A stretch of DNA of 39,548 nucleotides from a virus. Lineage: Duplodnaviria; Heunggongvirae; Uroviricota; Caudoviricetes. The position numbers and the translations under genes are program-made. Below, in pieces: positions 1,575 through 1,800 of this stretch (position 1 is its first letter; every line of letters begins with the position of its first letter). The notes under the pieces were generated by a model that did not search any database, was not told where the DNA came from, and was given only the letters and a program-made list of their open reading frames with translations. The stretch lies in the IMG/VR virus record IMGVR_UViG_2519899835_000008; one strand, 5' to 3'.

Positions 1575-1800
1575 GGCCGCATAACCTCCTGCTTTGTTGA
1601 TGATATCTTTCTCGCCTAATCGATCGACAAAAACGATCGATTCGATGTGTTTAATTGATACAACAAATAGATTGAAAAGTCATCAACAATGATTCAGGGA
1701 GGTGATTATTTACTAAAAGAAAACGAAGACTTAGGGTGTGAAAACGATCATAAAATGATCATTTTATTGACTTTTTATCCAGTGAAGGTAGGATCGCGCG
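1575..1800. promoter_or_regulatory. com/mom regulatory region with clustered GATC (Dam) sites and palindromes
   Basis: GATC at 1622, 1635, 1746, 1757 and 1792 (five in ~175 bp); an 18-bp perfect palindrome ATAAAATGATCATTTTAT at 1750-1767; lies upstream of com on the minus strand. Confidence 0.5.

Follow-up and report, generated by a model that had tools for sequence, protein, structure and literature searches.

The five GATC sites located upstream of the com and mom genes of a Mu-like prophage in the virus record IMGVR_UViG_2519899835_000008 (positions 1,575 to 1,800 of a DNA stretch of 39,548 nucleotides, hereinafter the window) probably belong to two independent elements, namely, a predicted operator of the OxyR/Dam kind that adjoins com and the region of a promoter that is directed rightward. 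Judging from its sequence, the com-proximal element is a variant of the known OxyR/Dam switch, that is, a mom-type operator in a promoter position similar to those in agn43 and gtr, with no new regulator. The binding of OxyR, its sensitivity to methylation, and all transcription starts given below are predictions made from sequence identities, geometry, and conservation. The original prediction for this region extended Mu-like Dam/OxyR logic to the entire cluster; such logic appears to be supported for the proximal pair of GATCs only (1622 and 1635), through the spacing of the two sites, the match to agn43, and the presence of a partner half-site, and does not extend to the distal trio.

The window sequence is identical to that of E. 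coli FORC_069 and contains a Mu-like prophage of the Sp18 type, the counterpart of ECs_4993-4998 in Sakai, which reads from right to left. The genes next to the GATC region are the following:

1374-1574, minus strand: com (Pfam Zn_ribbon_Com, 2e-12)
1590-1585, minus strand: Shine-Dalgarno sequence of com, AGGAGG
683-1420, minus strand: mom (Pfam Mom, 2e-77), overlapping the 3' end of com

The Pfam matches confirm both genes on the minus strand, and with them the assignment of the GATC region as the sequence upstream of com and mom; its far border is an intrinsic terminator of the same strand (1875-1846). The mom DNA is ~71% identical to that of Mu. The phage encodes a single protein of the Mor/C family (29326-29748, minus strand), which is 40% identical to Mu C and 27% identical to Mor, and whose gene lies directly between gemA and the lysozyme gene, just upstream of the latter. 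Mu has two genes of this family, and the pair of middle and late activators appears to have collapsed into one gene here. Thus, a com gene that overlaps mom and a C-family activator, both expected of a phage with a Mu-type mom promoter (Pmom), are present in this prophage as they are in Mu.

The GATCs start at 1622, 1635, 1746, 1757, and 1792, and there are no others between 517 and 2206. All the originally reported positions are correct, including those of the five sites in ~175 base pairs (bp; the exact span is 174 bp), of the two sites that are 13 bp apart, and of the perfect 18-bp palindrome at 1750-1767 that is centred on a GATC. The elements adjoining com, all included in the proposed operator, are as follows:

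1618-1642: inverted repeat AATCGATCG-N7-CGATCGATT, perfect over 9 + 9 positions, holding the GATCs at 1622-1625 and 1635-1638
1623-1637: proposed promoter-proximal OxyR half-site of the form ATCG-N7-CGAT, with the two GATCs inside, 13 bp apart
1654-1668, minus strand: proposed distal OxyR half-site ATTTGTTGTATCAAT, matching 7 of the 10 consensus positions, with no GATC

On the com strand, the inverted repeat reads ATCGATCGTTTTTGTCGATCGAT, which is identical in 21 of 23 positions to the agn43 operator of E. coli K-12, ATCGATCGTTTATATCGATCGAT, the bearer of GATC-II and GATC-III. The same half-site form, (G)ATCG-N7-CGAT(C), is common to the window, agn43, Mu mom, where the counterpart ATCGGTAATACAGAT bears GATC2 and GATC3, and two half-sites of P22 gtr, OxyR(A) (ATCGGTAACAACGAT) and OxyR(C) (ATCGCTTGTATCGAT). 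As in other OxyR/Dam operators, the Dam sites lie inside the OxyR site, with both GATCs in the proximal half-site. In the form expected of an OxyR dimer half-site, 1623-1637 matches the consensus ATAGnTnnnAnCTAT in 7 of 10 positions, and the known GATC-bearing half-sites score 7-8/10 against the consensus (PMC4856963). The 13-bp distance, which had been singled out as unusual, is in fact canonical for the GATC pairs of OxyR half-sites (PMC2909390); in P22 gtr, such pairs are found at -110/-97 and -46/-33 (PMC2909390). For agn43, repression of the unmethylated state by OxyR is established (PMC4872104). Alignment with the Mu mom promoter, proposed as a check in the original prediction, showed that the proximal pair has the same 13-bp spacing and the same flanks as GATC2 and GATC3 of Mu. 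Within the window, 1622/1635 is the sole GATC-N9-GATC pair, and the inverted repeat has no second copy even with 3 mismatches allowed. The proximal pair is clearly non-random, unlike the cluster as a whole.

The proposed partner half-site at 1654-1668 is located upstream, with 31 bp between its centre and that of the inverted repeat. Two half-sites of an OxyR tetramer are expected to be ~22 bp apart or, for the reduced form, ~31-32 bp apart, and the window pair conforms to the latter spacing; the partner offset is 31 bp in Mu, 31-32 bp in agn43, and 32 bp in gtr. We scanned the window with the half-site consensus given above, taking 20 positions as the full site. Four of the seven best full-site matches in the 39.5-kilobase window fall at 1623-1654. 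Compared with dinucleotide shuffles, the 120 bp upstream of com contain a best site with a 7-bp gap at P = 0.005 and six positions scoring at least 12/20 where 0.18 are expected. When the gap is set to 16-17 bp (centres 31-32 bp apart), agn43 scores 16/20, and Mu and the window 14/20 each, the window site with the 16-bp gap consisting of ATTTGTTGTATCAAT, 16 bp, and ATCGTTTTTGTCGAT. The motif scan suggested as a further check has thus yielded enriched sites beside com and a full site that equals the Mu score.

The comparative signal goes further. Across 29 non-redundant GATC-N9-GATC contexts, the mean score of an upstream half-site peaks at an offset of 31 bp, at 5.69 compared with a background of ~2.7. 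The peak at 31 is found in the Sp18-type prophages, in the loci L055, L056, L009, L012, and L058, and in Mu, classes that otherwise cannot be aligned; a peak at 32 is seen in agn43, in gtr from C to B (10/10), and in L060 and L022. In nearly all classes of com-upstream sequences, 31 or 32 is the best upstream offset. This offset signal is the strongest evidence that 1654-1668 and 1623-1637 together form a putative OxyR tetramer site.

Conservation of the com-proximal element was assessed by aligning E. coli relatives and 49 different sequences upstream of com, taken from GTDB genomes and IMG/VR. The inverted repeat is invariant in the aligned E. coli relatives, and the GATC pair is kept in every variant of the E. 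coli lineage, with one flank change in L054. The ~100 bp adjoining com are essentially invariant in the E. coli Sp18-type prophages, except in the interval that separates the repeat from the ribosome-binding site. In the JKHS016-type relatives, the proximal operator is identical and the distal half-site block is kept as well, even as the sequence beyond ~1686 has diverged past recognition. Outside this lineage, a conserved GATC pair precedes com in Mu and in D108-like, Edwardsiella, Symbiopectobacterium, Apirhabdus, and Pantoea loci, as well as in IMG/VR prophages, and a cassette of com and a methyltransferase in a P2-like prophage (L008) contains the pair too; it is absent upstream of com in all 4 of the 4 non-enterobacterial loci with com. 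Altogether, the 13-bp pair, the inverted repeat, and the partner half-site are conserved across com loci with otherwise unalignable flanks.

Two candidate promoters for com and mom can be predicted:

1600-1630, minus strand: candidate core promoter, recognized by sequence only, with -35 TTGTCG (1630-1625), a 19-bp spacer, and -10 TATCAT (1605-1600)
1655-1683, minus strand: tentative alternative promoter upstream, with -35 ATGACT (1683-1678), a 17-bp spacer, and -10 TATCAA (1660-1655)

Under the former, the -10 hexamer follows the GATC by 16 nucleotides, and transcription would start near 1592-1594; a start at 1592 would place the GATCs at -46 and -33, the positions of GATC3 and GATC4 in P22 gtr (PMC2909390). 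Under the latter, the hexamers of which are kept as ATGACA/TATCAA in the JKHS016-type relatives, the inverted repeat would lie at about +7 to +31, in a layout similar to that of agn43. Other relatives of class B have -10-like hexamers (TATACT, TATCAT, TATAGT, or TAGATT) 7-9 nucleotides after the proximal GATC. Both predicted promoters put the operator on or beside the core promoter. Most likely, then, the operator either overlaps the -35 and spacer of the promoter, similarly to OxyR(C) of gtr, or sits just downstream of the upstream promoter, as in agn43.

The layout indeed differs from that of Mu, as originally noted: the GATCs number two rather than three and are shifted ~27 bp toward com, and the interval that separates them from the gene lacks a Mu-type C box. 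The Mu GATC triplet, with spacings of 18 and 13 bp, is located ~109, 91, and 78 bp from the com start codon and is shared with L011, L012, L022-L024, and L058; the window lacks such a triplet, and its two GATCs are 64 and 51 bp from the com ATG where the Mu counterparts are at 91 and 78, leaving just 47 bp between the last GATC and the ATG. A similarly close operator is found in Edwardsiella (L009), L055-L057, L118, L169, and the P2-like L008, in which the -10-like hexamers 7-9 nucleotides after the proximal GATC are strong. In Mu and several enterobacterial relatives, the C box and Pmom are positioned between the triplet and com (C-box sequences in PMC4461284), so that the Mu operator lies upstream of the activator site, and Mu C binds a site overlapping the mom promoter (PMC4461284). 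Pmom combines a C box on a poor -35, a 19-bp spacer with a T6 run, and the -10 TAAGAT; between the operator and com, the window has no T6 run, no ACCACA/TAAGAT promoter, and no C box. With the pair shifted in this way and no C box of the Mu type intervening, the operator would overlap or abut the core promoter. The features shared with Mu are the 13-bp GATC pair with the flanks ATCGATCG...GATCGATTA, the partner half-site 31 bp upstream, and the block ATCAATTAAA.

Searches for an activator site gave little. The Mu-type C box CMATAAYCMC has no exact match in the window, and its one-mismatch matches (25, with 18 expected) are at the chance level; the sole such match near com, AAATAATCAC at 1702-1711, is well upstream of the operator and was rejected as a C box because no usable -10 follows it. 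The 12-mers (with up to 1 mismatch) that the com-upstream region has in common with the rest of the window are only scattered matches in coding regions, and no motif shared between the com-upstream region and other intergenic regions of the window was detected.

Among the other known OxyR/Dam systems, agn43 and gtr have operators in positions similar to that predicted for the window operator. Similarly to agn43 (flu), it shows 21/23 identity over ATCGATCG-N7-CGATCGAT, with GATC-II and GATC-III 13 bp apart and a partner half-site 31-32 bp upstream, and is predicted to sit at or beside the core promoter. In contrast, another GATC, GATC-I, brings the number to three in agn43; it is located at the transcript start and coincides with the annotated 5' end of isrC, and agn43 is a phase-variable locus that controls an autotransporter, whereas the window operator, known from sequence alone, precedes a phage DNA-modification operon. 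The gtr region of P22 is likewise encoded by a prophage and has a 13-bp GATC pair in an ATCG-N7-CGAT half-site overlapping the -35, at -46/-33 (the window positions if transcription starts at 1592), as well as a GATC-free half-site 31-32 bp upstream. What sets gtr apart is a further half-site, A, the third; with its own 13-bp GATC pair, it enables OxyR to occupy the region in alternative ways and to activate; no equivalent of this second GATC-bearing half-site was found in the window, where the distal pair is 11 bp apart and not OxyR-like. The GATC-bearing half-sites of Salmonella opvAB also match 7-8 of the 10 consensus positions and have the reduced-OxyR spacing (PMC4856963), but opvAB has four half-sites with four single GATCs, and OxyR is an activator there.

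Under the preferred scenario, OxyR would bind when both GATCs are unmethylated, and possibly also when they are hemimethylated, and would block RNA polymerase; Dam methylation of 1622 and 1635 would exclude OxyR and leave the com-mom promoter permissive. The half-sites 1623-1637 and 1654-1668, at 31 bp, have the spacing used by a tetramer of reduced OxyR, and repression would occur by direct occlusion at the core promoter, not from a site upstream of an activator.

Several observations weigh against this interpretation. The consensus for OxyR is A/T-rich as well as degenerate, and neither of the window half-sites matches it in more than 7 of 10 positions; moreover, the distal half-site has no GATC, and the third GATC of Mu and agn43 is missing. 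The -10 hexamer TATCAT is degenerate (CATCAA or TATCAA) in most of the Sp18-type relatives, so the position of the promoter is uncertain, and the com-mom operon may be poorly expressed. With regard to the separation of the two elements, the distal block is nearly invariant in ~214 E. coli genomes, a pattern that is indistinguishable from recent common ancestry, so that the palindrome may have a lineage-specific function, and two of the distal GATCs (the equivalents of 1757 and 1792) are kept in L055, which is ~70% identical.

The distal GATCs and the palindrome are associated with a different set of features:

1741-1762: 11-bp tandem repeat AAAACGATCAT / AAAATGATCAT, with the GATCs 1746 and 1757, just upstream of the rightward -35
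1750-1767: perfect 18-bp palindrome ATAAAATGATCATTTTAT, centred on the GATC at 1757 and abutting the rightward -35
1767-1794, plus strand: sigma-70-type promoter TTGACT-16-TAGGAT directed rightward, with -35 at 1767-1772 and -10 at 1789-1794

The last three letters of the -10 hexamer TAGGAT and the C that follows make up the GATC at 1792. In L055, the rightward promoter reads TTGACT-16-TAAGAT, and in L056, TTGACG-16-TATAAT; the spacers have diverged, and the distance to the downstream hairpin is unchanged. By comparison of these sequences, this is the conservation pattern of a real promoter. The GATCs do not follow it: 1792 is changed to GATT in L034 and L124 and absent in L056; L055 has a single repeat unit, with one GATC there and no palindrome; and L056 has neither the repeat nor the palindrome. 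The tandem repeat was seen in the E. coli lineage only. The distal trio and the palindrome are missing from the JKHS016-type relatives, L037, and L056, all of which keep the proximal element. Since they are not conserved where the rightward promoter is, the distal GATCs and the palindrome are most likely incidental parts of an A/T-rich upstream sequence tied to the 11-bp repeat, and the palindrome looks like a lineage-specific product of that repeat, not a conserved operator. At most, the distal group would be a lineage-specific modulator with a local role at the rightward promoter. It was also considered as a second OxyR site and rejected, with a best consensus score of 11/20. Resemblances to a Fur box, a CRP site (TGTGA-N6-TCATA, 1737-1752), and an IHF site are partial and at the chance level by eye, with no scan made.

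Statistically, the cluster is less striking than its appearance suggests. The window contains 115 GATCs, compared with 154 +/- 12 in dinucleotide shuffles (0 of 100 shuffles had as few), so that ~0.5 sites are expected per 175 bp. The 174-bp span of the five sites is the tightest in the window; it is, however, weaker evidence than was implied, given that an equally tight five-site cluster arises somewhere in 13.6% of random placements of 115 sites (scan P = 0.136). The distal trio spans 50 bp, and a tighter chance trio (42 bp) is found at 11226, inside a coding region. The palindrome exceeds all other perfect palindromes of the window in length and is unique there even at 3 mismatches; perfect palindromes of at least 18 bp appear in 10 of 100 dinucleotide shuffles. 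With these two frequencies, density alone does not establish function, and we rejected the anomaly of the five-GATC cluster as sole evidence.

These data bear on the other explanations that can be offered for the region. As originally proposed, all five GATCs and the palindrome could form one Mu-like control region of com and mom, with an additional regulator bound to the palindrome. All five sites do lie between the upstream terminator (1846-1875) and com, the palindrome is invariant in the Sp18-type E. coli prophages, and L055 retains two of the distal GATCs. The arrangement nevertheless appears unlikely: in the JKHS016-type prophages, L037, L056, and P2-like cassettes, the operator and com are retained where the distal group is missing, and this group behaves as a separate module that has diverged in the JKHS016-type relatives and coincides with a conserved promoter facing away from com. 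The extra regulator fares no better: L055 and L056 lack the palindrome, which has no look-alike elsewhere in the window, and neither it nor the cluster is more than marginally non-random. At the other extreme, the least probable explanation is that all these GATCs accumulated by chance in a spacer rich in A and T and play no regulatory role. The scan P of 0.136, the P of ~0.1 for the palindrome, and the similarity of the close relatives, which is too high to reveal selection, are all compatible with chance, but the exact 13-bp spacing, the inverted repeat, and the partner half-site persist across com loci with unalignable flanks, and the proximal pair matches experimentally defined operators.

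Two further explanations accept that the proximal element is functional and differ from ours in what it does. Proteins of the Mor/C family bind dyad-symmetric sites overlapping the -35, and it is conceivable, if rather improbable, that the repeat at 1618-1642 is a site for a phage protein and not for OxyR, for example, for the C/Mor homologue acting as a late activator on the -35. The window encodes such a homologue, with its 40% identity to Mu C, and no other activator box was found upstream of com. A late activator, however, must also serve the lys, head, and tail promoters, and the uniqueness of the inverted repeat in the window implies that it is not an activator box shared by late promoters; the region that follows the C gene, upstream of lys, resembles the lys promoter of Mu (Plys) and not the repeat. 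Furthermore, agn43, a chromosomal locus that lacks a C protein, has the same repeat, as do P2-like cassettes. It is very improbable that the region forms a bistable, phase-variable switch of the kind known from pap and gtr, in which alternative occupancy of the two GATC groups would set mom ON and OFF lineages. In its favour, the two GATC pairs lie in repeats, one inverted and the other tandem, and their centres are ~123 bp apart; gtr uses two 13-bp GATC pairs (PMC2909390); and phase variation of Mu mom is not settled in the literature. The distal pair, on the other hand, is 11 bp apart, not 13, does not fit the OxyR consensus, and is not conserved together with the operator, and no third half-site bridges the groups at a gtr-like spacing. 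Two alternative GATC-bearing regulator sites conserved together, as expected of a switch of the gtr and pap type, are not found in the window.

The com-proximal operator, as proposed here, is of wider interest. Dam/OxyR control of mom, a textbook example, is not known to have been studied in any phage other than Mu. The window suggests a conserved, portable operator upstream of many com-linked DNA-modification cassettes, of both the Sp18 and the P2-like types, and one whose place is at the core promoter, similarly to the agn43 and gtr operators and unlike that of Mu, which lies upstream of an activator site. The operator-plus-com unit precedes various payloads in L006, L110, L118, L169, and L008, including mom, a C5 cytosine methyltransferase, a methyltransferase with the DPPY motif, and, in a P2-like prophage, a methyltransferase; ~160 E. 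coli records match com genes of the P2-like kind, and one of these records (L008) was inspected. These arrangements suggest that the operator and com make up a portable control cassette for DNA-modification enzymes. The predicted mode of action is direct occlusion by OxyR, possibly with epigenetic heterogeneity of DNA modification in lysogens. A stronger version, which we regard as doubtful, is that the cassette of operator, promoter, com, and modification enzyme runs without the phage late activator in most prophages, that the Mu C box is derived, and that the cassette could switch ON and OFF epigenetically in Dam+ lysogens in the agn43/gtr manner; this version would cover Sp18-type Mu-like, P2-like, and other prophages, with mom, C5-methyltransferase, and DPPY-methyltransferase payloads. 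If true, it would imply subpopulations of lysogens with differently modified DNA, that is, a prophage-encoded, phase-variable anti-restriction or methylation state. The findings do not overturn the current understanding of these systems; they do correct the annotation of the ECs_4996-type open reading frames (ORFs) discussed below.

Exact copies of ATCGATCG-N7-CGATCGAT are also found in the IMG/VR sequences L136, L141, L128, and L123, beside genes unrelated to com and often with a third GATC 18-19 bp away. The neighbours look like a family-25-like glycosyltransferase and a tail-fibre-like protein (judged by eye from the N-terminal sequences, with no family search) and may be further OxyR/Dam-controlled prophage genes.

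The rightward promoter points away from com, through two conserved hairpins, toward a small gene. The features of this part of the window are the following:

1689-1988, plus strand: ORF of the ECs_4996 type (phrog_26524; 154 amino acids in O157), rejected as a gene
1803-1838: conserved hairpin formed by TATGTAGTAT, a 16-nucleotide loop, and ATACTACATA, with the stem kept and the loop varying in relatives
1846-1875, minus strand: intrinsic terminator, a 13-bp stem followed by UUUCCCUUUU
1951-1922, minus strand: promoter-like TTTACA-18-TAGGAT, with the hexamers conserved in L055 and L118 and a different spacer
~1915-1836, minus strand: candidate small RNA of ~80 nucleotides, ending at the terminator and antisense to the rightward transcript
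1981-2187, plus strand: unannotated ORF of 68 amino acids with a good Shine-Dalgarno sequence

The ORF at 1689-1988, which would hold the palindrome, was rejected as a real gene. Its annotation is frameshifted or partial in 7 of the 8 inspected E. coli relatives and that of a partial pseudogene in FORC_069, it is confined to Sp18-type inserts, and in L055 and L056 there are stops in all frames; because the ORF is broken in relatives, the region is non-coding. The terminator hairpin, located inside this ORF, varies among relatives, with at least 4 distinct stem sequences and compensatory double changes in three pairs. The ECs_4996-type ORFs appear over-extended across non-coding DNA that contains a promoter, a terminator, and a likely small RNA. 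In place of the 68-codon ORF at 1981-2187, relatives (L055, L056, and O157; L005:1789-2253) have an ORF of ~53 amino acids encoding a zinc ribbon (CPxC, ~33 residues, CPxC), and the 154-amino-acid annotation of the ECs_4996 type seems to be an extension of this small gene. The candidate small RNA has a conserved 5' part, ACGAGCTCGAAGTAAAGCATTGATGC, and is present as a tandem duplicate in STEC299 (L004) and L056; an Rfam scan of 1300-3100 gave no match to it and nothing else relevant. A hairpin located between a tail-fibre-like gene and a DUF1378 gene is overlapped by a weak Esr41-like Rfam match on the plus strand at 2955-3037 (22 bits, with the gathering score at 102; E = 0.23), which is probably due to chance.

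A literature search on the Sp18 locus tags returned nothing relevant, and a paper on the O111 methylome contains no site-level data on the Mu-like prophage. Elsewhere in the window, the stretch 30375-35325 is free of GATCs, and an A/T-rich segment of ~1.1 kilobases among the genes of the tail-fibre region (5801-6934) contains no ORF of at least 70 amino acids on either strand. At the left end, the insertion of the prophage splits a gene for a fimbrial usher of the FimD/PapC type (window positions 1 to ~555), and the adjoining segment 556-680 contains repeated TTTGATAC-like motifs, of the kind known from the transposase-binding ends of Mu-type phages.

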